From Patescibacteria group bacterium (lineage in GTDB: Bacteria; Patescibacteriota; Minisyncoccia; Phycocordibacterales; Phycocordibacteraceae): a stretch of 64,000 bases of DNA. Numbering within the stretch: the stretch's first letter is position 1; each line of letters opens with the position of its first letter. The DNA lies in assembly GCA_040390125.1 (NCBI GenBank), contig JAZJYZ010000001.1, positions 243,026 to 307,025 on the forward strand, read 5' to 3'. This document shows, piece after piece, positions 431 through 63,796 of this stretch. The notes under the pieces were generated by a model. That model was not told the DNA's origin and ran no database searches. It was given only the letters and a program-made list of their open reading frames with translations. The translations under genes and the position numbers were made by a program.

Positions 431-545
431 TGGAAGAGAGAGGGAAGAGGGGGTAGTGTTCAGTGAACAGTGAACAGTGGGCAGTTGGCAGCTAACAGCT
501 AGAGAGGATAGAGATAGTAGAGAGGCTAGAAGCTGAAAGCTGGCA
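431..545. repeat. degenerate short-word tandem array (gtgaaca/gtgggca/gctaaca/gatagag-type words)
   Basis: tggaagagagagggaagagggggtagtgttcagtgaacagtgaacagtgggcagttggcagctaacagctagagaggatagagatagtagagaggctagaagctgaaagctggca. Confidence 0.75.
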
Positions 546-622
546 CCCCCCAAGGGGACTGCTGTTTGCAAATCAATCGCAAGGCTCTTGAGCAAACAGG
601 GAGCCTAGCACCTAGAACCTTC
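546..622. repeat. ~70-nt repeat, copy 1 (inverted partner at 8741..8810)
   Basis: The sequence cccccaaggggactgctgtttgcaaatcaatcgcaaggctcttgagcaaacagggagcctagcacctagaacc is near-identical (about 2 mismatches in 59 nt) to the reverse complement of 8741-8810. Confidence 0.8.
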
Positions 623-663
623 CTCCTGCCGTATATACTGTGCATGTACTGTAATTTTAATAT

Positions 664-1791
664 ATGAAAAAAATAGTAATTTCGTTTGTCTTTGCTTTGC
701 TCGTGCTTCCAAGCGTTGTTTCTGCGGCAACGGTAGATGAACTCAACACAAAATTACAAAGACTCCTCTTGGAGGTAGAGCAGGTTCGCCAAGAGCTTGT
801 AGCGGCACAAGCTGCTGCAAAACCTTCAGTGACGCCCTCCACTGCTTCAAAGGATACATTGTGTGTCCAACTCACTCGAGCACTATCTATCGGTGTCTCT
901 GACCAGCAAACGGACGGCGAAGTTACAAAGCTCCAAAGAGTACTAGCCGAAGATAGAACGCTCTATCCCGAAGGCTTAGTGACAGGCTATTTTGGGCCCG
1001 CAACTCAAATGGCGGTGAAGCGTCTGCAATCACGAGAAAATATTCTTGCCGGTAATTCCACTCCCGCAAGTGCCGGAGTAGTTGAATCTTCTACACGTAT
1101 GTTTCTGGCGTCACGCTGTGGAACAAGTGTGCCAGTCTCATCAGGAACTACAGCTCGTCCGAGTTTAACCAATAACCTCGAGTCTGCACTTGCAACCATC
1201 ACTCTCGACACAATGTCATCATCTGTGTCCAGCACACCAACGATATCTGGCTCCGCAAAAAACCTCGCTGCGGTTTCCGTTTCAATCCGAAGTAGCGAGG
1301 TTGTGTATGCAAATGATTCAGTGCCAGTAACAAACGGCCGGTGGTCGGTAACAATACCAACACTGCGAAATGGTTCGTATCAGGTAATTGCGAAAGGTGC
1401 TGGTGGGGGAGCAATAGCGGTAGGGTTTATTACTATCGATGTGCCGAGTGCCACTGTTGCATCCAGCACTCCAAGAGTGCCGACAGACACAACACTGAAA
1501 GTCGTAGCTCCTACGTTAGTATCAAAAGTAATTTTGCGGTTGAACGGCTCTGACAAAGGCACGACGATACTTCCGGGGTCAAAGGTGCTTATAAGTTGGA
1601 GAACTGAAAATGTTTCTTCGTGCGTGTTTGTTTCCAATCCTCCAATAGAGCTTTCTGGTTCTGCTCTAGCGTCGGAGTCTGGAAAATCTAGCGGACCAAT
1701 TCTTAAAACTACTGTCTTTACACTTACGTGCATTGGTGCGGACGGTACGTTTGTCTCACACTCGCTCACGGCGAACGTAGCGAAGTATTAA
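664..1791 (+). CDS. secreted protein with putative peptidoglycan-binding domain (PG_binding_1-like)
   Basis: It has an N-terminal signal peptide (MKKIVISFVFALLVLPSVVSA). The segment LQRVLAEDRTLYPEGLVTGYFGPATQMAVKRLQ resembles a peptidoglycan-binding repeat. The C-terminal part is Ser/Thr-rich. Confidence 0.55.
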   Translation: MKKIVISFVFALLVLPSVVSAATVDELNTKLQRLLLEVEQVRQELVAAQAAAKPSVTPSTASKDTLCVQLTRALSIGVSDQQTDGEVTKLQRVLAEDRTLYPEGLVTGYFGPATQMAVKRLQSRENILAGNSTPASAGVVESSTRMFLASRCGTSVPVSSGTTARPSLTNNLESALATITLDTMSSSVSSTPTISGSAKNLAAVSVSIRSSEVVYANDSVPVTNGRWSVTIPTLRNGSYQVIAKGAGGGAIAVGFITIDVPSATVASSTPRVPTDTTLKVVAPTLVSKVILRLNGSDKGTTILPGSKVLISWRTENVSSCVFVSNPPIELSGSALASESGKSSGPILKTTVFTLTCIGADGTFVSHSLTANVAKY

Positions 1792-1812
1792 GCTTTTCTT
1801 GCTTTACATAAA

Positions 1813-1845
1813 AAAGCGGAGGTTGCCCTCCGCTTTTTTATTTTC
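1813..1845 (+). terminator. rho-independent terminator after 664..1791
   Basis: aaagcggagg-ttgc-cctccgcttt hairpin followed by a T-run. Confidence 0.75.
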
Positions 1846-2068
1846 CTTTTTTACCTGATTTCGGTGGTCTATTTTTCCCCTGATTCACCCATCCCTTCTT
1901 TTCTTTTGCCCGGTGGTCTTTCCCCTTATTGTGATGGCGAACCAAACTACCTTCTCCAAACATACGCATTCAAATCATTATTTTGTATAAATACCCTAAA
2001 GGATATAAAGGCAAGAATATTCCTAAAAAATATCTTGTCAAATCAAGCCTATGTAAAGACCCAAAAGC

Positions 2069-5359: not shown

Positions 5360-5447
5360 GGAGAGGTGCCAGAGCGGTCGAATGGAGCACACTGCTAATG
5401 TGTTGAACCTCAAAAGGGTTCCGAGGGTTCGAATCCCTCCCTCTCCG
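5360..5447 (+). tRNA. tRNA-Ser (anticodon GCU), type II with long variable arm
   Basis: Acceptor GGAGAGG/CCTCTCC. The D-arm contains GCCAGAGCGG. The anticodon stem is GCACA/TGTGT with loop CTGCTAA (anticodon GCT). The variable arm is TGAACCTCAAAAGGGTTC. The T-arm is GAGGG-TTCGAAT-CCCTC, with discriminator G. A terminator follows. Confidence 0.8.
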
Positions 5448-5460
5448 CAAAATAAAAAAT

Positions 5461-5614: not shown

Positions 5615-5633
5615 CGAATCCCTCCCTCTCCGC
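5615..5633 (+). other. 19-nt exact duplicate of the tRNA-Ser 3' end (cgaatccctccctctccgc), 167 nt downstream of the intact tRNA
   Basis: It is identical to 5430-5448. The upstream sequence does not fold as a T-arm, so it appears to be a tRNA 3'-end remnant or att-like direct repeat. Confidence 0.5.
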
Positions 5634-6796: not shown

Positions 6797-6853
6797 CCCA
6801 CATTCATTCTAGTGTTTTGCAAAACACTAGAATGAATGTGGGGGCAGTTTTTT
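6797..6853 (+). terminator. strong rho-independent terminator (perfect 22-bp inverted repeat) after glnII
   Basis: cccacattcattctagtgtttt-gc-aaaacactagaatgaatgtggg followed by gcagttttttg. Confidence 0.8.
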
Positions 6854-7893: not shown

Positions 7894-8739
7894 ATGAAAA
7901 AAATCACTTCAGCTCTTATTCCGTTTATAGCCGTTGCATTACTTCTCTCTCCGTCATCTGTGCGTGTTGTGGAGGCCGTGAGTGCAACTACGAATGCCAC
8001 AGTAAACGCAAGTGCCCCTGGTGTGAAGGCAGAAGGAACAGCAAGCCTCAGTGCATCGCAGTCTATTGCACTCATGCGTGGCAAAGATAAAGCACATCAA
8101 GAAATCGACCGCAGAGTTACTAATCTCAATGCACTAGTGCTCCGTGTGCAAGCGATGCTGAATTTGTCAGAGGCAGATAAAACTGCAATTGCAGGCACGC
8201 TGACTGCACAGGTGAATGCGCTCAATGCATTGAAAGCGAAGATTGATGCAGATGCGGATCCAGAAACACTGAAAGGCGATGTAAAGTCTGTCACTGATTC
8301 GTATCGCATTTATGCGCTCATCATTCCACAAGGTGCCATTATTGCTGCGGCTGACCGCATTGTGACGGTTGCTACAAAATTACACCTCATCTCATTGAAG
8401 TTTGAAACCAGAATTGCTGCCGCTGCTACAGCCGGCAATGATGTGAAAGCAGTACGAGTGACCCTTGAGGAATACAACTCGAAAATTGCAAACGCAAGTC
8501 TTCAAGCACAGGCGGCGGTGAATGCAATTGTGACACTTGTTCCTGACGATGGAGACGCAACAAAGAAGGCGGCAAACATCAAAGCACTCAAAGACGCACG
8601 TGCAAAAATTGTGCTCGCACAAAAAGATTTACAGACAGCACGCAAAGATGCTGACAAGATCATTACTGCTCTTAAGGGAATGAAGGTTAATTCGACTGCA
8701 ACGACTACGGCGGAAACATCTGCAGGAGTAGGACAATAA
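7894..8739 (+). CDS. hypothetical secreted Ala-rich coiled-coil protein
   Basis: Signal peptide MKKITSALIPFIAVALLLSPSSVRVVEA. The rest is Ala/Lys-rich and predicted helical. Confidence 0.45.
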   Translation: MKKITSALIPFIAVALLLSPSSVRVVEAVSATTNATVNASAPGVKAEGTASLSASQSIALMRGKDKAHQEIDRRVTNLNALVLRVQAMLNLSEADKTAIAGTLTAQVNALNALKAKIDADADPETLKGDVKSVTDSYRIYALIIPQGAIIAAADRIVTVATKLHLISLKFETRIAAAATAGNDVKAVRVTLEEYNSKIANASLQAQAAVNAIVTLVPDDGDATKKAANIKALKDARAKIVLAQKDLQTARKDADKIITALKGMKVNSTATTTAETSAGVGQ

Positions 8740-8740
8740 T

Positions 8741-8810
8741 TCTAGGTGATAGGCTCCCTGTTTGCTCAAGAGCCTTGCGATTGATCTGCAAACAGCAGTC
8801 CCCTTGAGGG
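8741..8810. repeat. ~70-nt repeat, copy 2 (inverted relative to 546..622)
   Basis: tctaggtgataggctccctgtttgctcaagagccttgcgattgatctgcaaacagcagtccccttgaggg is the reverse complement of copy 1. Confidence 0.8.
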
Positions 8811-8820
8811 ATTCTAGGAA

Positions 8821-8850
8821 AAATTCCCGACTCATGTCGGGAATTTTTTT
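8821..8850 (+). terminator. rho-independent terminator after 7894..8739, first of three consecutive hairpins
   Basis: aaattcccgac-tcat-gtcgggaattt followed by a T-run. Two further perfect palindromes follow it: 8859-8892 (caaaactatacgat-caa-tcgtatagttttg) and 8900-8933 (ttctgaaaattacca-cat-ggtaattttcagaa). Confidence 0.75.
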
Positions 8851-8990
8851 ATGAGTTGATCAAAACTATACGATCAATCGTATAGTTTTGAATTTGAATG
8901 TTCTGAAAATTACCACATGGTAATTTTCAGAACTACTTTCTACCGCCATCTTCTACCTACTACTCTCTACCCACTACCCTCTGTTCCACC

Positions 8991-9635
8991 TCAGTGGGCG
9001 AGGGTGATTGCAATAACTTCAGAAGCACCCGCTTGAATGAGTGCTCGTTTTGCATCAGCGAGTGTTGTGCCAGTTTCCGCAACGTCATCTATAAGGACTA
9101 TCTGCATGCCTGTGACCTTTTCAGGACGAATGACGGAGAATGCCCCAGCAATATTTTTTTCACGCTCTGACTTTAATACTTCTACTTGGCTTGCTCTGTC
9201 TTCCCGACCCAACACATCAGGTGCATAGATGACCTGCCCTTCAAGGTGGGGGAGTGTGGCGAGCACGATTCTCTCCACTTGATTGTAGCCTCGAGCTTTT
9301 AGGCGAGCTCTTGAGCTTGGAATAGGGACGAGGAGTGGATTTCGCCAGCCCTGAAGCGTTTTCTTTTCCTCGAGTATGTGGATGATTTCATCAGCAAGGA
9401 TTCTGCCCAGAGCTGGCAGGGGTGCTTTTTCGCCCCGGTATTTTATTGCCCGAATAAGTGCACGAACTTTATGGTTTCGGTATGGGAAAAGTGCAGTAAT
9501 CCACTGCCTATCTCGATGAATCATCGGATGCAGAAGCTCCGCAAGGGTATCTTCTGAAAGTGAGCGTGCGATTGAGGATTCGCTGGATATTGGAATCAAT
9601 GCATCAAGAATCCTCCTAAAAATGTGGCCAATCAT
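8991..9635 (-). CDS. comFC: ComF family competence protein (ComFC-like phosphoribosyltransferase domain)
   Basis: C-terminal PRTase motif IVLIDDVAETGTTLADA. The N-terminal part matches the ComF/GntX layout. Confidence 0.75.
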   Translation of the reverse strand: MIGHIFRRILDALIPISSESSIARSLSEDTLAELLHPMIHRDRQWITALFPYRNHKVRALIRAIKYRGEKAPLPALGRILADEIIHILEEKKTLQGWRNPLLVPIPSSRARLKARGYNQVERIVLATLPHLEGQVIYAPDVLGREDRASQVEVLKSEREKNIAGAFSVIRPEKVTGMQIVLIDDVAETGTTLADAKRALIQAGASEVIAITLAH

Positions 9636-9743
9636 GGTATACTTGGCAACATTGTACCCCCATACGGCGCTTTGACTGCACTCATAAGAAGAACACTGCG
9701 GGAGGCATTAGAGATTCATCATGATAATTATTAGTTTCCGTCT

Positions 9744-10883
9744 TTGTCAGTCGTAGTATCTCTTTTAAGTATGGATTTTTCTCTCGGCGGTTTGTCTGAA
9801 AAATTGAGGCAGTTCACTTCCTCTTTAGGAGTGAAGGATGGATTGAGTGTACTTGGCGTGGACATTGGCACATCATCCATAAAGATAGTGCAGGTGAAAG
9901 AAGTGCGTGGCAGTGCCGTGCTTGAAACGTATGGTGAAATTGCACTTGGTCCTTATGCGAATGCTGAAGTAGGACAAGCGGTCAGTCCTTCGTCCGAAAA
10001 AATTGGGGAAGCATTGAAGGATGTGCTCCATGAGGCAAACGCAACAGCGAAAGCCGGTGGATTCTCTGTACCACTCTCCGGTTCACTCATTAATGTCATC
10101 AGTCTGCCGACCAAAGATCCAAACGATTTGGCAAACATGATTCCCATAGAGGCACGCAAGTATATTCCTGTACCAATTTCAGAAGTTGCACTCGATTGGT
10201 TTGTGATTCCTGATGAAGAAGCAAAATTTTTAAGTCCACAAGGCGGAGCAGGGAAGACCGCAAACTCAACAGAGGTGCTCCTCGTTGCTATTCATAACCA
10301 AGTGCTTGCTAAATATCAATTAATTACGGAAGCTGCCACGCTCACGCCTAGGTTCTTTGAAGTAGAGCCGTTCAGTATGGGGCGAGCTTCATACGAGCAC
10401 ACCACTGCACCCGCCATGATTATTGATATGGGTGCTTCTTCGACCCGGGTATACATTATTGAATTTGGTATTATTGATGTGTCGCACACTATAGGGCGAG
10501 GAGGCCAGGATTTGACGTTGGCTCTCGCAAAATCTACAGGCGCTACGTTCCAAGAGGCCGAGAACATAAAGCGTGACAAAGGCTTAGCTGATTCTGAAGC
10601 TGGCTCTGCTGCACTTGATTTCGTATTTGCTGAAGCTCGCCGTATTTTGCTCACCTATCAGCGTAAAGAAGGTAAAGCGGTTTCGCAGGTTGTACTCGTC
10701 GGAGGAGGAGCAGCACTGAAAGGTATTAAGGAGATGGCTGCAAAATCATTTGACGCACGCATTATTGTTGCTTCACCGTTTGAAAAACTGGCAACTCCCG
10801 CTTTCATTGGCGATGTCTTGAAAGGAGCGGGACCTTCGTTTGCTTCGGCAATTGGATTGGCACTTAGAGCACTGCACCAGTAA
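9744..10883 (+). CDS. pilM: type IV pilus assembly ATPase-like protein PilM
   Basis: Actin-like N-terminus VLGVDIGTSSIKIVQVK. It is about 380 aa and is followed by the pilN/pilO-like genes. Confidence 0.8.
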   Translation: MSVVVSLLSMDFSLGGLSEKLRQFTSSLGVKDGLSVLGVDIGTSSIKIVQVKEVRGSAVLETYGEIALGPYANAEVGQAVSPSSEKIGEALKDVLHEANATAKAGGFSVPLSGSLINVISLPTKDPNDLANMIPIEARKYIPVPISEVALDWFVIPDEEAKFLSPQGGAGKTANSTEVLLVAIHNQVLAKYQLITEAATLTPRFFEVEPFSMGRASYEHTTAPAMIIDMGASSTRVYIIEFGIIDVSHTIGRGGQDLTLALAKSTGATFQEAENIKRDKGLADSEAGSAALDFVFAEARRILLTYQRKEGKAVSQVVLVGGGAALKGIKEMAAKSFDARIIVASPFEKLATPAFIGDVLKGAGPSFASAIGLALRALHQ

Positions 10884-10975
10884 CAGCCAGAGCTTCTAGG
10901 TGCTAGCTTCTAGCTTTAATAATTTCCACTAACACCTAGAACCTAGAACCTAGAACCTTTTTTCTAGTGTTATGC
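10884..10975. repeat. word array in inverted halves (cttctaggtgctagcttctagc ... cacctagaacctagaacctagaacc)
   Basis: The two halves are approximate reverse complements, giving an imperfect hairpin between pilM and pilN. Confidence 0.7.
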
Positions 10976-10982
10976 TTTCCAC

Positions 10983-11618
10983 ATGGAAGAGCGTGTGAAG
11001 ACGTCGTTTATACCTAAGGCAGCGCTAAAGGTTGAGCGAACTGAAGTGAGAAGGGCAAGTCCCGTTGCACTCGTGAATATAGTCGCAGGTGCCATTTTGG
11101 TTATTACTATTCTTGCTGCCGGCGGTTTATTTGTTTTTGAGCGTTATTCAGTTCAAGCAGTCGAGAGCAAACGTCAATCATTAGAGCGATCTCGTGCAGC
11201 ATTTGAACCCGCTACAATAAAAGAGCTGTCACGCCTTGATACCAGGATTGCTGCAGGCACCGCACTTCTCAAAAGTCATACTGCACTCTCGTATCTTTTT
11301 GATGAGCTAGAAAAGCAAATGCTTTCCTCCGTTAGGTTTGAAGACTTTTCATATGACATCGCAGATCCAACCCGCACACTTCTTTCTGCAAGCGGGGAAG
11401 CGGCGAGCTTTAACGCTGTCGCATTGCAATCCGACGCATTCAGTAAAAGCAGTATTATCACCGAGCCTATTTTCTCGAACGTGAATATTTCGAAAACCGG
11501 TACCATAATTTTTGACTTCACCGCAGTAATCGATACATCACGTATGGGCTATACCGGCACAGTTGCACCAGCAGTATCAGTGCCTTCAGTAGCAACCTCT
11601 TCAACACCAGCACTATGA
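10983..11618 (+). CDS. pilN: type IV pilus assembly protein PilN-like
   Basis: Single N-terminal TM followed by a coiled-coil region. It sits immediately after pilM. Confidence 0.5.
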   Translation: MEERVKTSFIPKAALKVERTEVRRASPVALVNIVAGAILVITILAAGGLFVFERYSVQAVESKRQSLERSRAAFEPATIKELSRLDTRIAAGTALLKSHTALSYLFDELEKQMLSSVRFEDFSYDIADPTRTLLSASGEAASFNAVALQSDAFSKSSIITEPIFSNVNISKTGTIIFDFTAVIDTSRMGYTGTVAPAVSVPSVATSSTPAL

Positions 11619-12157
11619 AACTTCTAGCACCCATTGTTTTCCTTGCCATCTCCGGAGCCATCTTTTTCTTGTATATTGATAAAACATACGCAGGTTTAAA
11701 GACTGTGCTTGCGGAGGAGGCTCAGTTTGACGCTGCCCTCTCTCGTTCAAGAGAACTTCAAGATGTGCGTGACCAATTATTGAGCCGTTACAATACCTTT
11801 CCACAGGCAGATCTCGCTCGTTTGCAAAAATTAGTTCCTGATCACGTTGATAACGTACGCCTCATTCTTGATTTCGACAGCATGGCGAGCCGATACGGCA
11901 TGCGTGTGCGAGACGTGGTTATTGAAACTGCAAAAGAACGAACGACCCGAGGTCAAATAGGTCCTGACGAAAAATCCTACGAGTCGGTCATTCTATCCTT
12001 TACGGTCAGCGGTTCATACGACACCTTCCGTCAATACCTCGCCGACTTGGAGCGGAGCCTCCGTCTCGTTGATGTAGTGGGGCTTTCTTTTACTGCAAAC
12101 GAAACAGGCATCTATGACTTCAGTTTCCATATTAAAACCTACTGGCTTAAACCATGA
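11615..12157 (+). CDS. pilO: type IV pilus assembly protein PilO-like
   Basis: N-terminal TM and a periplasmic domain. Its start overlaps the pilN stop. Confidence 0.45.
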   Translation: MKLLAPIVFLAISGAIFFLYIDKTYAGLKTVLAEEAQFDAALSRSRELQDVRDQLLSRYNTFPQADLARLQKLVPDHVDNVRLILDFDSMASRYGMRVRDVVIETAKERTTRGQIGPDEKSYESVILSFTVSGSYDTFRQYLADLERSLRLVDVVGLSFTANETGIYDFSFHIKTYWLKP

Positions 12158-12462
12158 CGATACTTACACGTTACAAAGGAGTTCTTATTGCGCTAGCGGT
12201 CATCGTGGTCGCTTTTTTTGCGTACTCGTATTTCTTTCCTAAAGATTCTGCTCCGGCTCTTTCGGCCGAAATAGCACCCGAGAATGTTTCTGTCGACCAG
12301 GACTTAATTTCGCTCCTTCTTGAGCTTAAATCTATAAAACTCAATGACGCTATATTTGCTGACAGTGCATTCAAGAGCTTGCAGGATTTCAGTCAGGAGC
12401 TCGTGCCAGAACCTGTGGGACGCAACAATCCGTTTGCTCCACTTGGCGCAAAACCGAGATAA
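12154..12462 (+). CDS. small membrane-anchored pilus-assembly accessory protein (PilP-like?)
   Basis: Translationally coupled to pilO. It has one TM helix. Confidence 0.3.
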   Translation: MTILTRYKGVLIALAVIVVAFFAYSYFFPKDSAPALSAEIAPENVSVDQDLISLLLELKSIKLNDAIFADSAFKSLQDFSQELVPEPVGRNNPFAPLGAKPR

Positions 12463-12584
12463 TTAATGAACCTCCAAAATACAAACCTCAAAAACTAAAA
12501 TCTGCCAAAATCTCAATGATTAAAATTTTATTCCTTCAAAATTCATTTGTAACTTCTAACTTGGTTCTTGATTCTTTTTGATGT

Positions 12585-14348: not shown

Positions 14349-14362
14349 AGATTATTACTACT

Positions 14363-14764
14363 ATGGAACCAAGTGCAAAAAAACAGTACTCGATTCTCCT
14401 TGTTGACGACGACCGGTTCCTTTTAGACATGTATACGTTGAAGTTTAAGAACGATGGTTTCGTAGTTGAGGCTATTCCTGATTCTTCGCTCGCTCTTGAA
14501 AAACTTCGAAAGGGTTTTGTGCCAAATATTATTTTGTTGGACGTGGTTATGCCTGGGCTCTCTGGATTTGAACTGTTAGAAGCTGTTCAGAAAGAGGGTC
14601 TTGCGAAAGGAGCGGTAATTATTATGCTTTCCAATCAAGGCCTTCAGGAAGATATAGATAAAGGTATGAAACTCGGTGCTTCTGGATACATCATTAAGGC
14701 AAGCTCAATCCCTTCCGAGGTATTACAGAAAACGTTGGCTATTGCCGATGCAAAAATAAAGTAA
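14363..14764 (+). CDS. single-domain response regulator (CheY-like receiver)
   Basis: Residues ILLVDDD...LLDVVMPGLSGFELL...IIMLSN...K match a REC domain. There is no output domain. Confidence 0.8.
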   Translation: MEPSAKKQYSILLVDDDRFLLDMYTLKFKNDGFVVEAIPDSSLALEKLRKGFVPNIILLDVVMPGLSGFELLEAVQKEGLAKGAVIIMLSNQGLQEDIDKGMKLGASGYIIKASSIPSEVLQKTLAIADAKIK

Positions 14765-14781
14765 GAGTGTGAGATTCTCAT

Positions 14782-15843: not shown

Positions 15844-15844
15844 A

Positions 15845-15930: not shown

Positions 15931-15936
15931 CTCACC

Positions 15937-17148: not shown

Positions 17149-17149
17149 C

Positions 17150-17250: not shown

Positions 17251-17377
17251 TTCTTATCCACATTTTTAAAGGTCATACTCCGTGGGAGCCTATACAATGG
17301 ATATTAGCTCTCGGCATTGCAGTCTTTCTTAATTTAGTAATTTCCTTGAGTTAAAATATATTCATAATAGAAAGTCT

Positions 17378-49784: not shown

Positions 49785-49906
49785 CTTTCAGGTGTTGGCT
49801 TTCAGATTTTAGTTTTAGGCGATGCTTCATCGTGTCCGAGGGCCAGCTTTACTGTATCCGTAGGTTTCATAGGAAAAATTTTTTATTTTTCTCTGAAATA
49901 CGAAAA

Positions 49907-49957
49907 ACCCCCTGTATAGTATAAAATCACGGTCGTGATTTTATACTATACAGGGGT
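49907..49957. repeat. palindromic hairpin element, copy 2 (same arms as 46131..46193)
   Basis: cccc-ctgtatagtataaaatcacg-gtc-gtgattttatactatacag-gggg. Confidence 0.8.
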
Positions 49958-56516: not shown

Positions 56517-56546
56517 TTGCTCTAGTATAGCGTGTCGCTCGGATTG

Positions 56547-56653
56547 CTTTTGGCGAAGCATTCGACTTCTGCCGCGGAAGCCTTATTCGTCCTCGCACCA
56601 ATTTCCCGCTCAAAGCGGGAACCGAGCAATCGATGTTGCGGATGTTCGCCAAA
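56547..56653. ncRNA. conserved ~107-nt structured element, copy B; orientation unresolved
   Basis: See copy A. It lies directly upstream of the MFS start. It is followed on the plus strand by an intrinsic-terminator-like hairpin at 56673-56705 (tgtgcaacct-cagg-aggttgcaca + atttttg). Confidence 0.55.
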
Positions 56654-56972
56654 AGCAACCCTCGCTCTCAAGTATGTGCAACCTCAGGAGGTTGCACAAT
56701 TTTTGAGACGGGCACTAGAGAGGCTCGACGTCTTTCAGCGTTCTCTCCTTCGGCATCCACGATCCGCCTTTTGCACAATAACTGTATAGGTAGGTGAGGT
56801 GACCATCTGCGTGTCGAAGCGTATGTGTTGCAAAAACGGTGTGATGAAATTCACAGTAGCGAGGTAGTCGCTCTCGCCAAGGTTCTTTTGATTCGATCAT
56901 GGTATTAAAACACTTACGCCGGAGTGAGTTTCTCCAGCCTGAGTTGTTTCCCTAATCCTAGTATCCGGCAGA

Positions 56973-58991
56973 TTAAACTCCGATGAGGACAGGGATGACC
57001 ATAGGCCTTTTTGAAGTCTTTTGGAAGAGGTAACGCTCGACGGTGTCGGTGAGGTTGGTCTTTATGTACTCCAAGTCCACCGGATTCATGCCTGCTGCCA
57101 AATCTTCCGTCGTCTTCTTGATGAGGAGTCGTGTCTCCGAGAGGAGTCCTTGAGATTCCCTAAGGTACACGAATCCTCGAGAGATGATGTCGGGCGATTT
57201 TTTGAGGGTGCCTGTTCGCAAGTTTACAGTTGCGATGATGACGAACATACCATCTTGCGCCAAAGACTGACGATCTCGTATAACAACCTCTTGCATGTCG
57301 CCGATGGAGAAGCCGTCTACCATCATTGGGTTCGCTGGAACTTTTTCTTTTCGGACCGTCATGGTTGTTCCGTTTTCAATTTCTATGATGCTTCCGTTAT
57401 CTGGAAGTACCACGTTCTCTTTAGGGAAGCCTGCAGCGATTTGTGCATTCGCATGGTATTTGAGCATTGAGAAGTAGCCGTACGCTGGCATGAAGAATGT
57501 TGGATTTACTTGCTGACGCATCCAGACAAGCTCTCCTGTGTTGCCGTGTCCTGTGGAGTGCACGTCTGATGAGCGATAATGAATTAAGGATACGTTGTGA
57601 CGCAAGAGATTGTCTTTGAGTTTCTGTACCCGCACTTCATTACCTGGAATAACCGAAGAAGAAAGGATGATGGTGTCACGTTCAGTAAACGCAATATTTT
57701 TGTGTTTTTTTGTGGCGATACGCATCAGGGCTGCGGTGTCTTCGCCTTGTGAGCCTGTTGCGATTATGACGATGCGATCCGCTGGGTAGTCATTGATGTC
57801 TTCTGCACGAATCATCGTACCTGGCTTTGGTGTGAAGATATTTGCACGCTGAGCGATTTCGATGTTGGTTTTGATTGATCTGCCTTCGGTTATGATCTTC
57901 TTTCCGAGGTTCTCTGAGGTCTTGATGATGTGAATCATGCGTTCGAACTGCGAAGAGAAGGTGCCGATGATGAGGCGTCCCTTTACTGACTTGATGATGT
58001 CTTCGAGTGTCGTGTATACACGTGACTCAGGAATTGAAAATCCATCTCTTTCGGCGTTCGTTGAGTCTGCAATAAAGATAAGATTTTTATCACGACCGAG
58101 TCCTCCCCAGGTCTTTTCTTCTTTTGATGTTGGGATGCCGTCCTCGTGCTCCAAGCGTAAGTCTCCAGAAATGATGATGTTGCCGTGTTTGGTATGAATT
58201 GAAAGACCCATGGCGTCTGGAATGGAGTGAGTTACCGGAAACGTCTTTACGATAACTGGCTCTCCACCTGGCAAGCTTACCGAAACACTTCCTCCTGGTT
58301 CAATGACTCGAAGGTCAATGTCAGCAATATGTGGAAATTCTTCCTGCCGTCGTTTAATCATCAAGCTGGTGAGGTATTGCGTGTAGATAGGCGGGTTTCC
58401 AATTCGGTCGATGATGTACGGAATACCACCGATGTGGTCGAGGTGTCCGTGCGTAATGAAAACGCCGAGGATTCGGTCTTTGTTTTCTTCGAGGTAGCGA
58501 GTGTTTGGGAGGATGTAGTCGACTCCTGGCGTTGCTTCTTCGGAAACAAACTGAAAGCCGACGTCAGAAATAATGATGCCTTGTGGTAATTCAAAGATAA
58601 CCATGTTGCGACCCACTTCTTCAACACCGCCTATCGGTATGATGCGAACCGTATCTTCGTTGAGTGGAGGAAGAACGACACGGTCGACTGCACTCATGTC
58701 TCTCTCCGTGAGCTCTCGAGGCGGAGGGGTTGCACGCATTGGACGATTATTGGAGCGTGGTCGTTGGTGTCGTCTAGGCCCGTGTGCTGAGGGCGAACCT
58801 TGTGGGCGCCTTGGTCCTCGTGAAGGATGGGGTCTGCTCGTTGGTGTGCTTGGTCTTGCGGAGTGACTTGCTGGTCTCCCTGGTAGCGCATTAAAAGGGC
58901 GTGCACGGCCAGTTCGAGGGCCTGTGGAGCTTCGTTGAGGGCGTGATGGTTGCTGTGGGTTAGACCCTCGCGGTGGTAGTGGTGTATTCAT
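56973..58991 (-). CDS. rnj: ribonuclease J (metallo-beta-lactamase / beta-CASP) with ~100-aa Pro/Arg/Ser-rich N-terminal extension
   Basis: HxHxDH motif ITHGHLDHIGG, plus beta-CASP and C-terminal domains. Confidence 0.85.
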   Translation of the reverse strand: MNTPLPPRGSNPQQPSRPQRSSTGPRTGRARPFNALPGRPASHSARPSTPTSRPHPSRGPRRPQGSPSAHGPRRHQRPRSNNRPMRATPPPRELTERDMSAVDRVVLPPLNEDTVRIIPIGGVEEVGRNMVIFELPQGIIISDVGFQFVSEEATPGVDYILPNTRYLEENKDRILGVFITHGHLDHIGGIPYIIDRIGNPPIYTQYLTSLMIKRRQEEFPHIADIDLRVIEPGGSVSVSLPGGEPVIVKTFPVTHSIPDAMGLSIHTKHGNIIISGDLRLEHEDGIPTSKEEKTWGGLGRDKNLIFIADSTNAERDGFSIPESRVYTTLEDIIKSVKGRLIIGTFSSQFERMIHIIKTSENLGKKIITEGRSIKTNIEIAQRANIFTPKPGTMIRAEDINDYPADRIVIIATGSQGEDTAALMRIATKKHKNIAFTERDTIILSSSVIPGNEVRVQKLKDNLLRHNVSLIHYRSSDVHSTGHGNTGELVWMRQQVNPTFFMPAYGYFSMLKYHANAQIAAGFPKENVVLPDNGSIIEIENGTTMTVRKEKVPANPMMVDGFSIGDMQEVVIRDRQSLAQDGMFVIIATVNLRTGTLKKSPDIISRGFVYLRESQGLLSETRLLIKKTTEDLAAGMNPVDLEYIKTNLTDTVERYLFQKTSKRPMVIPVLIGV

Positions 58992-59079
58992 GCTGTTTTT
59001 AAAATTACGTATTTAGTTGTTAAATTTTTTAAATAATAGTTATTAGAGAATTTTCAAATGTTGTGGTTTTTTAATGTTT

Positions 59080-60828
59080 TTATTTTCTGAAAATAGGCCA
59101 GACACGTTCAGTCTTGAGATACCACATATCTACTGCATTGAAACGGTCGCTTGGTGTTCCTATAGTTCGAAGTGTTACGCCGGAGAGATTAGGTGGCGTC
59201 ACATAGACGAAATACGGGGTGTACAAGAAGACGGCGGCACTGTCGTCAGCTATGTCCTCAGCAACCGCATGTGCTTTCTCTAAGCGAAGCGATGGATCTG
59301 TTTCTGTACGCAGTGTCTCAAGCTTCTTATCTACATCAACTGTAGCATACAGTCCGATATTGAGCCCCGGATCATTGCGTTGGCTTGAGTGCCAGAATGC
59401 AAAGAGATCTAAGTCCCGCCCAATCACAAGACCGAAAAGTAGTGCGTCGTATTTTCGGGGTCTGATGACTCCCACGTTGAGGTCATTTTGGTCAAAGAAC
59501 TTCAATTCAACTTCAGCACCTACCTTTCTCCAGTCTTCCGCAACCAACTCTGCTGACCGTTTCAATTCCGGTATGTTTGAGGTAGAGAGAGAAAAAGAAA
59601 GTCGTACCGTCTGCTTTGACTTACCGCTCCCGGTCGTTTTTTTGAAAACCCCATCCTCGCCGGCTTTCCAGCCTGCTTTTACAAGGATCGCCTGTGCCTC
59701 CGCAATTCGTGTTTCTGCCGAACGCTCGTCCTTCAGAGCACTTGCTATCGAATCAGGAGGGAGTGGCCCGTCGATGACGGAGCCGTGACCTTCGAGGATT
59801 GTACTCACTAACATTTCTTTGTCAACTGCTCTGTCTAATGCGTGCCTCACGCTCTTTTCGGCGAATATTTTATTCTGGTTTTGATTGAAAAATACACTAA
59901 ATATTCTGCCGAAGACCGCTTCGTTTGTGGTGTATGCTCCGACTAGCCCACTAGTGCTTATTGAATGAACTGCACCAATTTCACCTTTGTTCAATGCACT
60001 CTTTAGTTCATCTGCATTCGCATATACTTTAAAAATAAAGCGTTCTATGTAGGGTATACGAGTACCTTCCGTCACTGCCTTAAGGCGATATTCGACGGGG
60101 ATACCTGATGAATTTTGTTTCATGCTTTCTACTTTGTATGGACCTGAGCCTATGGGATGTGCGTTTACCGTGCTGAAAGGAAATTCTTCCGGGGTTACGT
60201 TTTCCCAGATGTGTTTTGGAAGGATGCCCAAGGTCATGTTTTCAAGAAATGGGGCGTATGGGCTCTTCAGTGTGAAAGAGACGGTCTTTGGATCGAGAAC
60301 TTCCACGCTCACTCCTTCCCAGTCGGCTCTGCGTGGGCTTTTTATGTCGGGATTTTTAGACTCTTGTATCGTAAACGCCACATCTTCCGCCGTTACTGGA
60401 GTACCATCGTGGAAGCGTGCTCGGCTATCAAGTGTAAAGGTGTAGGTGAGTCTATCGTCGCTTACGGTGTAGGCATTTGCGAGGTCGTATTCAAGTGAAC
60501 CATCATGGTTTGCACGAAGCAGTCCTGAAAATACGAGGGTCGTGAGGTCCCGGTCGGTGTTGGAAATTGCAAGAAGCGGGTTCAAGAAGCGGGGAGACTC
60601 GGATAGGCCTTCAGTATATGTGCCACCGTGTGCAGGCACCTCGACTGCAAGTGCAAGTGAGATAGAAGCGAGCATGGATGCAGTTGCAAAGGCCATTACT
60701 GCACCTAACACACTGAGGACAAGCCAGTCTGATGGTTTCAGCAGTTCAGCCTTCGCTTCAAGTGTGCGAAGTGAAGGGGTTGTTCTGTGCCTCAAGAGTG
60801 CACGAAAGAATGCTCGTAAGGATGCCAT
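59080..60828 (-). CDS. ABC transporter substrate-binding protein, family 5 (peptide/nickel type), membrane-anchored
   Basis: N-terminal TM. Length and segments such as LDPKTVSFTLKSPYAPFL and GSGPYK match SBP_bac_5. Confidence 0.7.
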   Translation of the reverse strand: MASLRAFFRALLRHRTTPSLRTLEAKAELLKPSDWLVLSVLGAVMAFATASMLASISLALAVEVPAHGGTYTEGLSESPRFLNPLLAISNTDRDLTTLVFSGLLRANHDGSLEYDLANAYTVSDDRLTYTFTLDSRARFHDGTPVTAEDVAFTIQESKNPDIKSPRRADWEGVSVEVLDPKTVSFTLKSPYAPFLENMTLGILPKHIWENVTPEEFPFSTVNAHPIGSGPYKVESMKQNSSGIPVEYRLKAVTEGTRIPYIERFIFKVYANADELKSALNKGEIGAVHSISTSGLVGAYTTNEAVFGRIFSVFFNQNQNKIFAEKSVRHALDRAVDKEMLVSTILEGHGSVIDGPLPPDSIASALKDERSAETRIAEAQAILVKAGWKAGEDGVFKKTTGSGKSKQTVRLSFSLSTSNIPELKRSAELVAEDWRKVGAEVELKFFDQNDLNVGVIRPRKYDALLFGLVIGRDLDLFAFWHSSQRNDPGLNIGLYATVDVDKKLETLRTETDPSLRLEKAHAVAEDIADDSAAVFLYTPYFVYVTPPNLSGVTLRTIGTPSDRFNAVDMWYLKTERVWPIFRK

Positions 60829-60891
60829 TTTGTAGAGATGGTGTAGAGAAGCAGAACGTTAGCCCTTAAGAAGGGCTAATACACTAAGCTA

Positions 60892-61122
60892 CTAAGCCGT
60901 AATGAGTGCGAGTAGTGCCGAGAGGGCAAACAACACTGCAAGGACAATTGAGCTTTGAAAAAGAAAAAGCTCAGCTCCACGCCTGGTGTAGAAACTCTCT
61001 TGTGTACTGTCGCCAAAGGCACCTCCCAAGCCAGCTCCACGCTGTTGGAGGAGTATTGCTCCGATGAGGAGAATTGAGAGAATGACTTGTACCCCCGGAA
61101 GGAGGCTATTTATGAGAGCCAT
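60892..61122 (-). CDS. secG: preprotein translocase subunit SecG
   Basis: LLQQRGAGLGGAFG between two TM helices. It is 76 aa. Confidence 0.7.
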   Translation of the reverse strand: MALINSLLPGVQVILSILLIGAILLQQRGAGLGGAFGDSTQESFYTRRGAELFLFQSSIVLAVLFALSALLALITA

Positions 61123-61219
61123 AGTGCCTGGTTGCTAGGATACCACGCTCATGGAAAAAGAGGCAACCTGCCTGTTGACGAGGGTTGGGTATGTCATTAA
61201 TTTGCTGGCCCTCATTTCA

Positions 61220-61248
61220 TTGACTGCACCGACACATTTCCTTATACT
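61220..61248 (+). promoter_or_regulatory. sigma70-like promoter (TTGACT-17-TATACT) upstream of groES
   Basis: ttgact at 61220-61225 and tatact at 61243-61248. I found no CIRCE inverted repeat. Confidence 0.45.
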
Positions 61249-61305
61249 ACGTTCTATCTCATGGGCATAGGCCCGTGTCTTTAGTTCTAAGAAATCTGAC
61301 AGCAT

Positions 61306-61662
61306 ATGGCTAAAACGAAAAAGAATTCGTCTGTGAAGAATAGTGTAAAGGGAGATAGTGAATTTTCTGTTCGTCCTTTGCACGATAGGGTAGTAATCAA
61401 ACCACTTTCACCAGAAGAGGCAGGTTCACGAACACTTTCCGGCATCATTATTCCTGATACCGCAAAAGAAAAACCTGAGCAGGGCAAGGTTGTTGCAGTT
61501 GGGCCCGGCAAATGGGATGAGGACGGAGAGAAGAGAATTCCAGTATCAGTAAAAGTTGGCGACAGAGTAATGTTCTCGAAATATGGTTACGACGAAGTAA
61601 AAATAAATGGCGTTGAGTATTTTATTGTCAACGAATCAAACATCCTTGCTATCCTTTCTTAG
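61306..61662 (+). CDS. groES: co-chaperonin GroES (with ~20-aa N-terminal extension as annotated)
   Basis: [10 protein letters not shown]...[23 protein letters not shown]. Confidence 0.85.
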
Positions 61663-61667
61663 TTTTT

Positions 61668-61707
61668 ATTTATTTCACTAAACGCTAACCCCTAAACACT
61701 AAACCCT
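61668..61707. repeat. word array (cactaaacgctaacccctaaacactaaaccct) immediately upstream of groEL
   Basis: A near-direct copy lies at 63757-63790 (gttcactaaacactaacccctaaacact). An inverted relative lies at 63349-63385 (gtggttagtggatagtgtttagagtttag). Confidence 0.75.
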
Positions 61708-63348
61708 ATGAGTAAGAAGATTCTTTTTGAAGCAGATGCACGAAATGCAGTAAAAACCGGCATTGATATTGTAGCGAGAGCAGTGAAAGTAACGCTTGGG
61801 CCTCGTGGTCGCAACGTTATTCTCGACAAAGGCTACGGCGGTCCACACATGACTAACGACGGTGTTACTATCGCTAAAGAAATTACTCTCAAAGACAAGT
61901 TCCAAAACATGGGCGCAGAGCTCGTGAAAGAAGTTGCAAGTAAGACGAACGATATGGCGGGCGACGGCACCACTACTTCCGTCGTTTTGTTTCAAGCGCT
62001 GATTGACGAGGGAATGAAACACACCGCCATGGGTTTGAATGCCATGGGTATTCGAACCGGTATGGAGCATGCGTCAGAAGCTGCAGTGAAGGCACTCAAA
62101 GCAATGGCAAAACCGGTTGCGGGAGACAATAAAGTCATCAAGCAGGTTGCAACTATTTCAGCAGAGTCTGAGGAAATTGGTCGCACTATTGGTGAGGTCA
62201 TAAAGGAAGTTGGTCAAAACGGCGTCGTAACGGTTGAAGAATCGCAGTCGTTTGGTATTGAAAAAGAAGTAGTAGAAGGAATGGAATTTGATCGTGGCTA
62301 CGTGTCGCACTACATGATTACGAATCCGGAAAGAATGGAGGCGGAATATCGTGATGCACCAATTCTTGTTACCGATAAGAAAATTGCTTCGATTCAGGAA
62401 ATTCTTCCGATACTTGAAGCTGTTGCAAAAACTGGAAAGAAAGAACTCGTAATTATTGCAGACGATGTAGAAGGCGAAGCATTGACGACGTTTGTGGTGA
62501 ACAAGCTTCGAGGTACGTTCAACGTGCTTGCAGTGAAGGCACCAGGATATGGGGACAGAAAGAAAGATATGCTCCAAGACATTGCTTCGACAATAGGGGC
62601 AACAGTGGTATCTGAAGAAACTGGTATGACGCTCGATAAGGCGGACGTTTCGGTTCTTGGTCGTGCACAGAAAGTAATTTCAACAAAAGATTCTACAATC
62701 ATCGTTGGAGGTAAGGGAAAGAAATCTGCTATTGATGCACGTGTTTCTGCTCTTCAGAAACAACTTGAAGCAAGCGATTCTAAATTCGACAAAGAAAAAC
62801 TCGAAGAGCGTATTGCAAAATTGTCAGGTGGCGTTGCAGTGATTCGCGTTGGTGCTGCGACAGAAACCGAGATGAAGTATTTGAAAGACAAAATTGAAGA
62901 TGCGGTGAATGCAACAAAAGCGGCGATTGCTGAGGGAATTGTTCCTGGAGGTGGTACTGCACTAGTTAAAGCTGCAGCAAAGGCGGAGGCCTCGGCTGAC
63001 TGGAAGAGTATGTCCAAGGAAGAAGAAATTGGCTATCGTATTGTTCTCTCGGCACTCTTGAAGCCATTGAAGCAAATTGCTATGAATGCCGGAAAGGAGA
63101 GTGGGGAGGTTATCGTTGAGGCAGTCAAAAAGGCAAAAGGCTTTGCCGGCTATGATGCCGTCAAGGATGAAGTTGTTCCCGACATGATGATTGCGGGCAT
63201 CATTGATCCAGTGAAAGTGACACGAGGTGGACTTGAGCATGCAGTTTCTGCGGCTGCCATTCTTCTCACCACAGAAGTTGCTATCGCTGATGAACCAGAA
63301 GAAAAGAAAGAAATGGGTGGTGCCCCTGGAGGCGGAATGGATTATTAA
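61708..63348 (+). CDS. groEL: chaperonin GroEL
   Basis: AVKTGIDIV...GPRGRNV...AGDGTTT, with a C-terminal GGAPGGGM-type tail. Confidence 0.95.
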
Positions 63349-63385
63349 AAAGTGGTTAGTGGATAGTGTTTAGAGTTTAGATAAG
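63349..63385. repeat. word array, inverted relative of 61668..61707, immediately downstream of groEL
   Basis: Its reverse complement resembles the upstream array. Confidence 0.7.
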
Positions 63386-63796
63386 AAAATAAATTATGTC
63401 GGAAACATTAGGAGGAGAGAGTAGAACTGGTTTGAGCCACCCACTTAAGCGTCGACGCTGGGAAAGGATAGTTGGTTTGGGGCAAGTCTTTCACCCTAAA
63501 GGTCGGCGTTGGGAACACGTTGATAGAGATGGTATTGCTCAGGTCGTCAAGGAAGAAAGAAAAACAGCGCAAACAGAGTTTCTAAATTGAGCGTATGCCA
63601 GAACCAGGGCAGTACGAAACACCTCAACCTTTACCTATTCCACAAGGCCCTTGGCCAGTTCGGGAAGTGCCTGGTGATCCAGATGATGGGGATGATGAAA
63701 AAGAAAAAAAGCCACGTTACATTCATTAAGGTTGTTTCATGCTAAAATTCAGAAGTTACACTGTTCACTAAACACTAACCCCTAAACACTATTTTT

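Follow-up and report, generated by a model that had tools for sequence, protein, structure and literature searches.

Heptanucleotide repeat arrays in the spacers and prepilin leaders of a Patescibacteria type IV pilus gene cluster

A 64,000-nt stretch of one contig from a Patescibacteria group bacterium (JAZJYZ010000001.1, positions 243,026 to 307,025 of the forward strand, referred to below at its full length as the window) contains many runs of short, slightly mutated tandem words, which raised the question of what kind of repeat they are, how they arise and whether they serve the genes around them. Most were found in or near a type IV pilus operon composed of pilM, three small genes, pilB, a response regulator gene, pilT, pilC, the major pilin gene, pilD and four minor pilin genes. 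The favored reading, to which a probability of about 0.6 was assigned, is that these are heptanucleotide simple-sequence repeat (SSR) arrays produced by slippage and template switching in unconstrained sequence, and that some of the hairpins that they are predicted to form have been co-opted.

The length of the repeat unit was determined with a lag scan, in which a segment was called where at least 15 of 21 positions equaled the base at lag p and dinucleotide-type (composition-preserving) shuffles were the controls, while Tandem Repeats Finder (TRF) was used as a second detector of arrays. In the 64 kb of the window, to which all period-7 counts for the window refer, lag 7 gave 19 segments compared with 0.5 in the shuffles, lag 14 gave 10 and all remaining lags from 3 to 16 gave 0 to 4 each; non-triplet periods other than 7 were without enrichment. 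TRF returned about 20 arrays of period 7, with 2.7-4.9 copies at at least 15 sites. The repeat unit is exactly 7 nt rather than the 6-8 nt reported in an earlier note on this DNA. The arrays themselves were present at nearly all of the places that the note listed, to within a few bases, and the regions 12470-12545, 605-622, 46108-46128, 20790-20830 and 49790-49830 turned out to be weak while the rest stood.

A unit of exactly 7 nt makes these arrays an instance of a described class, the heptanucleotide long simple-sequence repeats (LSSRs), in that the units run head to tail in at least about three copies and the excess is specific to that length. In many bacteria, heptamers outnumber every other class of long SSR, and their proposed origin is polymerase slippage (Mrazek et al. 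2007, as cited in PMC4679880 and PMC4692102). To the extent that the LSSRs of Mrazek, Guo and Shah (2007) are described in those accounts, they share with the arrays studied here 1) head-to-tail 7-nt units beyond chance, with the heptamer class alone enriched, 2) a location mostly outside constrained coding sequence, 3) a phylogenetically patchy distribution and 4) the proposed slippage; on the same basis, the present arrays differ in that a genome has many different words, that half-arrays are frequently paired in inverted orientation and that some members are kept in frame in leaders and a linker. The units are contiguous, rather than 23-50-nt direct repeats with unique spacers of similar length, so the earlier view that this is not CRISPR was correct. 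A search of the window at the Rfam gathering thresholds matched tRNA-Ser alone, so that the arrays are covered by no curated or described RNA family.

Heptanucleotide arrays are already known in cyanobacteria, Xanthomonas, Beggiatoaceae and Haemophilus; no published report of such arrays in Patescibacteria was found. The cyanobacterial STRR heptamers were reportedly described by Mazel and co-workers in 1990. Heptamer repeats have been mentioned for Calothrix, as have GGGGA(T/C)T repeats for Nostoc and GGGAATC repeats for Xanthomonas (PMC4692102). Like the arrays in the window, the cyanobacterial and Xanthomonas repeats are intergenic, sometimes occur as inverted repeats able to form stem-loops, and vary in length and sequence between close relatives while their position is kept (PMC4692102), but the words here are different and not of the G-quadruplex type, and in the relatives of the organism studied here the hot spot is the 5' end of pilin genes. 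None of the published words (STRR1-3, TAACTGA, GGGAATC, GGGGATT and the hmw word ATCTTTC) occurred in tandem on either strand of the window; the arrays use many different words, none of them a published one.

The possibility that the arrays are an assembly, chimeric or synthetic artefact was considered because short-read assemblers can mis-size tandem repeats, and the Logan contigs of run SRR26324623 do break off inside repeats, one of them within a CAGCTTT array. However, the same contigs reproduced window positions 8756-17429, 17802-18830 and 57306-61937 at 100%, arrays included, that is, three stretches totaling about 14 kb and covering seven of the listed array regions, so the arrays were not missing from another assembly, as the earlier note would have expected of an artefact. 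Exact searches with GroES, the response regulator and PilD had led to this one assembly, which is identical to the window and adds no second strain; an exact GroEL search gave no hit. This match tests the assembler rather than the data, as the window may stem from the same reads, but the same array grammar was also present in dozens of independent metagenome-assembled genomes (MAGs) and metagenome contigs of other studies, and the arrays keep reading frames open. The artefact explanation is effectively refuted.

All 19 period-7 segments were located outside conserved gene and protein cores, in the 7.8 kb (12%) of the window that remains, and the pilus gene cluster (8.9-20.9 kb) accounted for 13 of them. 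An array was present in about 11 of the 44 spacers of at least 25 nt. With these numbers, the description of the arrays as pervasive was too strong. Their description as intergenic holds for the spacer arrays but not for those at 18797-18902, 19472-19570, 20165-20262, 20790-20822 and 29937-29962, which are inside reading frames. The first four of these belong to the minor pilin genes, where the arrays were found between an ATG at the stop of the upstream gene and the prepilin cleavage motif, G/FTLIE, the start overlapping the stop as ATGA in three of the four genes (at 18789, where the stop is that of pilD, and at 20160 and 20777). The half-arrays of minor pilin 1 (18797-18902) were free of stops in all frames and, as there is no in-frame start after 18864, at least its right array must be translated. 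No start codon was found downstream of the last array in three of the four minor pilin genes of the window. The fifth array encodes an N-terminal extension (KPKAKSQK) of a PurQ-like amidotransferase, since the Pfam domain of that protein begins only at residue 16.

The same arrangement was found in a set of pilin-like genes from the window and related loci, 46 after removal of redundancy, in which an array precedes the motif by no more than 200 nt. The frame of the motif was stop-free through the array in 40 of the 46, compared with 11 and 9 for the other two frames, and in 28 of 52 pilin-like cases the sole start codon was upstream of all arrays. The minor pilin frames were open through the arrays in the window and in two related loci, L001 and L003, with which the window also shares the CAGCTTT left array of minor pilin 1. 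Within the window, 10 of 15 non-coding arrays had stops in all three sense frames as opposed to none of the 8 in-frame arrays, half of which had no stop in any frame. The arrays inside reading frames are kept in frame and stop-free and, judging from these frames, are most probably translated; the minor prepilin leaders are assumed to be cleaved by PilD. In addition, in six Paceibacteria lineages, arrays of six different words were found in frame in the linker between the helix-hairpin-helix (HhH) and BRCT domains of LigA, the NAD-dependent DNA ligase. The arrays thus persist only in unconstrained sequence, which comprises spacers, the leaders of minor prepilins, the N-terminal extension of the PurQ-like protein and, in relatives, the LigA linker.

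The organism is an uncultured member of the Paceibacteria (candidate phyla radiation (CPR)/Patescibacteria). The best matches of its PilT were from uncultured Patescibacteria/Paceibacterota MAGs, with 91-92% amino-acid identity, followed by Candidatus Kaiserbacteria with 76%, and the closest genomes had about 75-78% nucleotide identity with the window over the genes compared. The relatives were represented by 152 non-redundant Paceibacteria pil loci (2.1 Mb), designated by L-numbers. The lag scan of these loci gave 123 arrays at lag 7 compared with about one in the shuffle, while lags 4, 5, 8, 10, 11 and 13 were at or near background. The distribution was patchy, with at least one array in 41 of the 113 loci of at least 8 kb. 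Of the 56 arrays in the 45 loci whose flanks were complete, 30 were 4-6 kb downstream of the pilT start, which corresponds to the minor pilin cluster, and three were in the 10 kb upstream of pilT. Of 113 arrays that were classified, 33 were non-coding, 9 were internal to long frames (6 of these in the LigA linker) and 6 were ambiguous. The others occupied the 5' ends of frames, which were pilin-like for 42 arrays and of other kinds for 23, with many divergent pseudopilins among the latter. The hot spot in the relatives is therefore the prepilin leader and minor pilin cluster and not intergenic DNA generally. Dozens of distinct words were present in 122 arrays, the commonest of which was seen five times. 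A universal YAG/CTR core was tried and rejected, as 50 of the 122 arrays had neither motif; AGC, GCT, CAG, CTA and TAG were enriched just 1.7-3.1-fold.

Comparison of close relatives provided evidence for how the arrays change. L001, L081 and L003 are mutually 92-95% identical, and at the site orthologous to window position 8740 the number of AGGTTCT units following the stop was six in L001, four in L003 and three in L081. In one leader array, the three units were all AGGTTCC in L001 and all AGGTTTC in L003, which amounts to homogenization, while L113 and L117 differed by a single TACTACG unit (three versus four). This gain and loss of whole units, together with homogenization, indicates slipped-strand mispairing in a 7-nt register as the probable process, and the differences between sister genomes bear out the earlier suggestion of a slippage-prone spacer architecture. 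Arrays have also been gained at some sites, since the pilT-pilC, pilC-pilin and x-pilB spacers measured 7-39 nt in relatives compared with 93-229 nt in the window. The pilT-pilC spacer had only 7-12 nt in L001, L002, L003, L011 and L013, the pilC-pilin spacer just 25-35 nt, approximately, in L001 and L003, and the spacer upstream of pilB (12463-12584), in which the order of composition is opposite to that of the other spacers, 24-39 nt in relatives.

Word families recurring kilobases apart, as noted earlier, were confirmed with matches of 85-96%. Positions 461-485 matched 20167-20191 (96%), 61674-61701 matched 63764-63791 (96%) and 17211-17238 (86%), so that the right half-array of the pilC-pilin spacer is a copy of the array upstream of groEL, and 18877-18917 matched 29937-29977 (85%). 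The distant copies of whole degenerate arrays preserved the order of the units (matches D4, D8 and D16). Arrays may therefore have been copied to other sites. A telomerase-like 3' extension, prompted by the CCCTAAA-like units, was also considered but dropped; slippage agrees better with the diversity of the words and the unit-wise homogenization, and there was no sign of a reverse transcriptase.

The inverted partners of the arrays could have been made by intramolecular template switching. In minor pilin 2, codons of the leader are paired with those of GFTLIE in a perfect 17-bp palindrome (19569-19605), and a perfect 20-bp palindrome (20261-20303) covers the AFTLIE codons of minor pilin 3. Similar leader palindromes were found in L083 near 14688 and in L088 near 12299, all of them perfect and 14-20 bp long overall. 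Because the 3' arm consists of GFTLIE codons, which are constrained, it must have served as the template of the 5' arm; this shows the direction of copying directly and is direct evidence for template switching. The palindromes sequester the start region and the codons of the cleavage site in a stem with a predicted stability of -26 to -29 kcal/mol.

Many spacers had two half-arrays, and the earlier description of these as approximate reverse complements that form long imperfect hairpins was upheld in six paired pil spacers, which were predicted to fold on the sense strand into imperfect stems of 21-41 pairs with -20.8 to -40.1 kcal/mol and z-scores of -1.4 to -6.4. The solo arrays, such as those flanking groEL, were predicted to be unstructured. 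In the paired layout, the left half-array is G-rich or C-poor, often with TAG or CAG, and the right half-array, roughly the reverse complement of the left, is rich in C and poor in G and has CTA or CTG. Among all loci, the G-rich half preceded the C-rich half in 14 of 18 array pairs and two were opposed. The complementary half-arrays would fold the operon transcript into an imperfect stem-loop of 21-46 predicted pairs at the cistron boundary. At pilM-pilN, paired complementary half-arrays with predicted stabilities of -22 to -40 kcal/mol were present in five genomes with about 75% nucleotide identity, the architecture of the window recurring with other words in L001, L002, L003 and L081. In the comparison with sister genomes that the earlier note called for, paired arrays were kept at pilM-pilN with changed words, and several other spacers were short in the relatives.

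The arm mismatches in the window, A.C on the sense strand, are G.U on the antisense one, with 11 and 31 G.U pairs, respectively. This asymmetry was rejected as a general rule, as it was strong in the window but not in the other loci (36 versus 43). The antisense RNA of the six paired spacers (10884-20265) also folded much better than the sense RNA, with -43.5 versus -24.5 kcal/mol for 19468-19578; this preference is contrary to what the plus strand, with its positive GC skew, would suggest and was inconsistent in other genomes.

Hairpins between cistrons could be unusual intrinsic terminators or attenuators, as the earlier note proposed. The stems are long, a T6 run follows the pilM-pilN stem in the window as well as in L001, and arrays often precede genuine terminator hairpins (8900-8933 and 17875-17900). 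A scan for consensus terminators, however, flagged these two hairpins and one leader palindrome but no array stem. Instead of a G+C-rich stem and a direct U-tract, the array stems were AT-rich and mismatched and most 3' arms had no U-tract, the T6 run being confined to pilM-pilN among the array hairpins of the window. Moreover, termination would do harm at the five arrays inside reading frames, and several of the spacers do not occur in relatives. Termination is thus an improbable general role for the arrays.

The composition of the arrays was related to the adjacent genes. On the sense strand of the gene, G exceeded C in all eight arrays of the window directly after a stop, and C exceeded G in all seven directly before a start. 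The array at 8936-8990, for example, has 26 G and 2 C with stop codons in all three frames, and the one following groEL (63349-63385) has no C, stops in all frames and no predicted structure, while the array in the groES-groEL spacer has one G, no Shine-Dalgarno (SD) motif and no predicted structure, and that at 448-545 is C-rich and G-poor on the sense strand of the RecG-wedge gene (minus strand). The arrays that were said to bracket groEL are thus present, but they reflect a rule for the entire window, C-poor, stop-rich arrays after stops and G-poor arrays before starts, rather than a structure specific to groEL. When all loci were counted with a crude and noisy calling of reading frames, C-rich arrays before starts prevailed (38 versus 14) but G-rich arrays after stops did not (22 versus 27), so the gene-relative polarity is solid in the window and for paired arrays only. 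Single arrays would then amount to G-poor tracts abutting starts and C-poor, stop-rich tracts following stops.

An SD-like motif was found in the 30 nt before only 4 of 66 start codons in the window. In many of these 66 genes a TATACT/TATAAT-like (-10-like) box was present 7-15 nt before the ATG, and boxes so close to the start suggest, from their spacing, leaderless mRNAs or mRNAs with very short leaders. With almost no SD motifs and such boxes nearby, G-poor arrays at starts may be compatible with, or even helpful to, SD-independent initiation, an idea that has been raised for the TAACTGA repeats of Beggiatoaceae (PMC4679880). Those repeats (MacGregor 2015, PMC4679880) likewise occur a few nucleotides before starts, apparently replacing SD sites, in genomes that have few of them, and their words contain stop codons; one word dominates there, whereas dozens are used here and complementary post-stop and in-frame arrays are present as well. 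It was also proposed for TAACTGA that one protein binds each heptamer, as does CspB (PMC4679880). By analogy, a single-strand nucleic-acid-binding protein that covers 7 nt, of the cold-shock-domain or S1-like type, might use the arrays as a binding lattice, and the bound protein might melt structure or recruit ribosomes at SD-less starts. The strict period of 7, the G-poor arrays abutting starts such as that of groEL in a genome nearly without SD motifs and the binding of Bacillus subtilis CspB to heptamer repeats, one protein per heptamer (reviewed in PMC4679880), are consistent with this proposal, but a specific binder is poorly matched by diverse words with weakly enriched cores (1.7-3.1-fold), many arrays are situated after stops or inside reading frames, and no candidate was found among the window proteins that were scanned. 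Both the lattice and the role suggested for the bound protein are accordingly considered improbable.

The relation of array hairpins to surface-structure genes has a precedent in Haemophilus influenzae hmw1A, where an (ATCTTTC)n array upstream of an adhesin gene supplies one of the arms of a long RNA hairpin and the number of units changes by slippage (PMC12721329). In the window, too, heptamer arrays are arms of predicted long RNA hairpins 5' of pilus genes, with 21-41 sense-strand pairs and -19 to -40 kcal/mol, and, from the sequence, a non-triplet repeat is present in the 5' coding region of surface-structure genes. In hmw1A, the other arm is a non-repeat, G-rich sequence, the array has at least 11 units and is untranslated, and RNase III processing and phase variation have been demonstrated (PMC12721329); here both arms of the predicted hairpin are arrays of 3-5 units, often inside a reading frame. 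No RNase III gene was present among the window proteins scanned. In Neisseria opa genes, CTCTT repeats are found in the region coding for the signal peptide, and ON and OFF alleles are well documented. The minor pilin arrays resemble these in being non-triplet SSRs in the cleaved leader of a surface protein, but differ in that no OFF alleles were seen among the assemblies and that arrays also occur in ligA and the PurQ-like gene.

These parallels raise the possibility that the arrays are contingency loci, in which slippage by one unit would frameshift single minor pilins off or on and the leader arrays, with the array hairpin as modulator, would act as the switches of a phase-variable type IV pilus tip. 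The 42 of 113 arrays at the 5' ends of pilin-like genes, with those of many divergent pseudopilins in addition, the in-frame position, the whole-unit indels between relatives and the precedent of the hmw (ATCTTTC)n hairpin (PMC12721329) all speak for such switching. On the other hand, the arrays are short (3-5 units), every array-bearing pilin gene in the consensus assemblies had a usable start, with the frame open in 40 of 46 and no OFF allele, the unit differences that were observed are in non-coding arrays, and pairs with 98-99.7% identical flanks showed no change. The same kind of array is, furthermore, in frame in ligA, which is presumably essential, and in the PurQ-like gene, where switching makes little sense. 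Phase variation by these arrays is therefore judged unlikely, both for the loci in general and for the leader switches in particular. No bet-hedging mechanism of this kind was found described for the Patescibacteria radiation in the literature.

The arrays might also be parts of miniature mobile elements, such as miniature inverted-repeat transposable elements (MITEs), REPINs or small dispersed repeats (SDRs), with the heptamers as ends or targets. Whole degenerate arrays do recur at distant sites, a 78-nt element occurs twice flanked by TTCTAGG units, and the insertion of a 27-nt mini-element is polymorphic inside arrays of L001, L003 and L081. The arrays resemble repetitive extragenic palindromic (REP)/REPIN sequences and cyanobacterial small dispersed repeats (PMC3116915) in being dispersed, hairpin-forming and intergenic, and in that very small elements, of 27 and 78 nt here, are nested in repeat-rich spacers, but they have no fixed unit beyond the heptamer and no fixed ends, length or word. 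Variation in unit number and homogenization are properties of SSRs, and no transposase or RAYT-like domain was present among the window proteins scanned, which did not include every reading frame and came from 64 kb. The nested elements look like guests in the arrays rather than their cause, and a mobile origin of the arrays is regarded as remote. Small dispersed elements are said, following Elhai and colleagues in 2008, to sit in heptamer repeats of cyanobacteria.

The two nested elements were examined individually. The 78-nt element, which lies between TTCTAGG/CCTAGAA units, contains the inverted repeat CTGTTTGC...GCAAACAG, and the loop of the hairpin at 19468 harbors pieces of the element (CAAACAGCAG...GGGATTC). 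At the site orthologous to 8740, L001, L003 and L081 have the array without the element. The 27-nt mini-element (GGCGAYGC..CRTCG..TCCG..AGGG, forming two tiny hairpins) was found inside heptamer arrays at about 49818-49844 in the window, L001:13708-13733 and L003:6178-6203, and is present or absent inside arrays between genomes that are 92-95% identical. The mini-element has a length divisible by 3 and is in frame in a pilin leader of L001 and L081; among all loci, it was confined to the window, L001/L081 and L003.

The remaining question is whether slippage and template switching suffice or whether function has been added. A pure mutational by-product, a lineage-specific bias toward 7-nt slippage and duplication that converts any unconstrained sequence into heptamer arrays and leaves arrays and hairpins without function, is a possible, though less probable, account. 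It accords with the disparate tolerant sites that are occupied (spacers, cleaved leaders and the LigA linker), the high diversity of words (the commonest five times in 122 arrays), the patchy presence in 41 of 113 loci and the 7-27-nt spacers of the closest relatives where the window has arrays. Against it stand the strong concentration at the 5' ends of minor pilin genes relative to other spacers, the pilM-pilN pairing that is kept in five genomes despite the change of words, the gene-relative composition in the window and the maintenance of spacers of about 100 nt in otherwise tightly packed operons. In the favored reading, most arrays would be tolerated filler, while hairpins at conserved positions, namely pilM-pilN and the minor pilin leaders, may have been co-opted as intercistronic or 5' RNA structures, through which the pilus operon would adjust the re-initiation of translation or the processing of its RNA.

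Several observations weigh against slippage with co-option, 1) the case for slippage draws on differences between species only, and two genome pairs with 98-99.7% identical flanks had no unit difference at the array sites, so the arrays are not obviously hypermutable, 2) no reason is provided for a register of 7, 3) arrays that are filler are expected in ordinary spacers, yet in the 45 loci with full flanks there were three upstream of pilT compared with 30 at +4 to +6 kb, 4) several hairpin spacers are missing from the closest relatives, so the hairpins there are not essential, 5) hairpins immediately after start codons should inhibit initiation, and a dependence on translational coupling is conjecture and 6) the A.C/G.U asymmetry of the arms is accounted for by none of the explanations considered.

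Heptanucleotide repeats are a recognized yet poorly understood oddity of a few bacterial lineages. Their occurrence here extends the phenomenon to a major uncultured radiation, in whose very small genomes a spacer with about 100 nt of repeat is a nontrivial expense, and adds comparative evidence on how arrays evolve by gain and loss of whole units, homogenization and the formation of inverted partners. As the arrays are tolerated in frame in leaders and a linker, gene callers and annotators will misplace starts or call such regions intergenic. The hypothesis is raised that minor pilus subunits of the CPR are phase-variable or translationally tuned through arrays; if phase variation were true, tiny and presumably host-dependent Patescibacteria would have a switchable pilus tip for attachment or DNA uptake. 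If the arrays are mere mutational filler, they still mark an unusual signature of replication or repair that is useful for studies of slippage.

Table 1. Coordinates of the heptamer arrays and nested elements (window positions unless a related locus is named).
Position	Strand	Location	Array or element	Remarks
448-545	-	upstream of RecG-wedge gene	degenerate CAGTGAA-type array grading into AGAGGAT-type	TRF, lag-7 scan
540-617	.	nested between heptamer units	78-nt dispersed element	inverted copy of 8740-8817, 92% complementary
605-622	+	upstream of gene at 664	two units, CCTAGCA CCTAGAA	weak
8740-8817	+	right after stop of gene 7894-8739	TTCTAGG-type units	split by 78-nt element
8936-8990	-	right after stop of minus-strand gene 8991-9635	GGTAGxx-type array	then terminator-like hairpin 8900-8933
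10889-10966	+	pilM-pilN spacer	left half-array AGCTTCT-type, right CCTAGAA x3.6, then T6	folds as hairpin
12469-12577	+	before pilB	A/C-rich period-15 tract (12470-12545) and T/G-rich period-7 segment (12547-12577)	both weak
15845-15932	+	pilT-pilC spacer	left GTAGAAT-type (no C), right CTACxxx-type (one G)	28-bp imperfect hairpin
17151-17244	+	pilC-pilin spacer	left TAGCCAC/TAGGGTA, right CCCTAAA-type half-array	
17831-17860	+	right after major pilin stop	TAGCTTC x3.4	then intrinsic-terminator-like hairpin 17875-17900
18797-18902	+	minor pilin 1, between ATG at 18789 and G/LTLIE motif (18918)	CAGCTTT x4.4 and AGCCAAA x4.4 half-arrays	
19472-19605	+	minor pilin 2, ATG 19468	AGAAAGT x4.9 and CTCTACCTTCTACT x2.3 half-arrays	open frame
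20165-20303	+	minor pilin 3, ATGA 20160	CAGTGAA-type and CACTGTT-type half-arrays	open frame
20790-20822	+	leader of minor pilin 4, ATGA 20777; GFTLLL motif 20873	degenerate GTGTACA/GGGTTTA/GTGAACA array	
29937-29962	+	PurQ-like amidotransferase, after ATGA-coupled start (29920)	AAAGCCA x3.7	
46108-46128	+	after stop of gene 45493-46107	about two TTTTTAG-type units	weak; palindromic element 46141-46183 next
49785-49844	+	after stop of gene 49308-49784	degenerate CTTTCAG/ATTTTAG units	broken by 27-nt mini-element (about 49818-49844)
61675-61707	+	fills groES-groEL spacer up to ATG	CACTAAA/CGCTAAC/CCCTAAA array	
63349-63385	+	right after groEL stop	GGTTAGT/GTTTAGA array	
63757-63791	+	5 nt before next ATG (63797)	second copy of groEL-upstream array	96% over 28 nt
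461-479, 8952-8982, 10891-10916, 10934-10958, 15846-15876, 17213-17244, 17836-17859, 18801-18831			TRF period-7 arrays, first set	
18872-18902, 19472-19505, 19538-19570, 20165-20194, 29937-29962, 61678-61708, 63766-63791			TRF period-7 arrays, second set	
L023:18174-18212, L039:19463-19506, L068:11144-11173, L070:17934-17972, L074:19280-19309, L155:15045-15082		LigA linker	in-frame arrays	

Outside the pilus cluster, the window contains purine-synthesis genes, groES-groEL, a PIF1-like helicase gene, an RNase J gene and others, and several repeats of other kinds were observed there. Palindromic repeats of one family, CTGTATAGTATAAAAT...ATTTTATACTATACAG, whose stems reach 23 perfect pairs, were found behind two genes at 46141-46183 and 49909-49956, and one of the copies seems to be where a Logan contig ends. 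A 23-bp perfect palindrome (CCCACATTCATTCTAGTGTTTTG and its complement) is present in a spacer at 6797-6842, and a similar palindrome was found in the orthologous spacer of L003 (about 2170-2250), within an insertion missing from L001 and L081, which points to a palindromic element that is small and mobile. The 3' end of tRNA-Ser(GCT) (5430-5448) is duplicated 185 nt downstream (5615-5633) as part of a 31-nt repeat with 87% identity that resembles, in its arrangement, the att-site remnant of an integrated element. A 148-nt direct repeat with 78% identity (45236-45383 and 56524-56671) extends over the 5' ends of two minus-strand genes, a cupredoxin-like gene and an MFS transporter gene, and over the regions upstream of them, and may be a shared leader or regulatory region. 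Finally, imperfect repeats encoding a Gly/Arg-rich sequence (GGAGGxGGTAG...) were observed at 41809-41973, in the N-terminal region of a DEAD-box helicase that precedes the helicase core.

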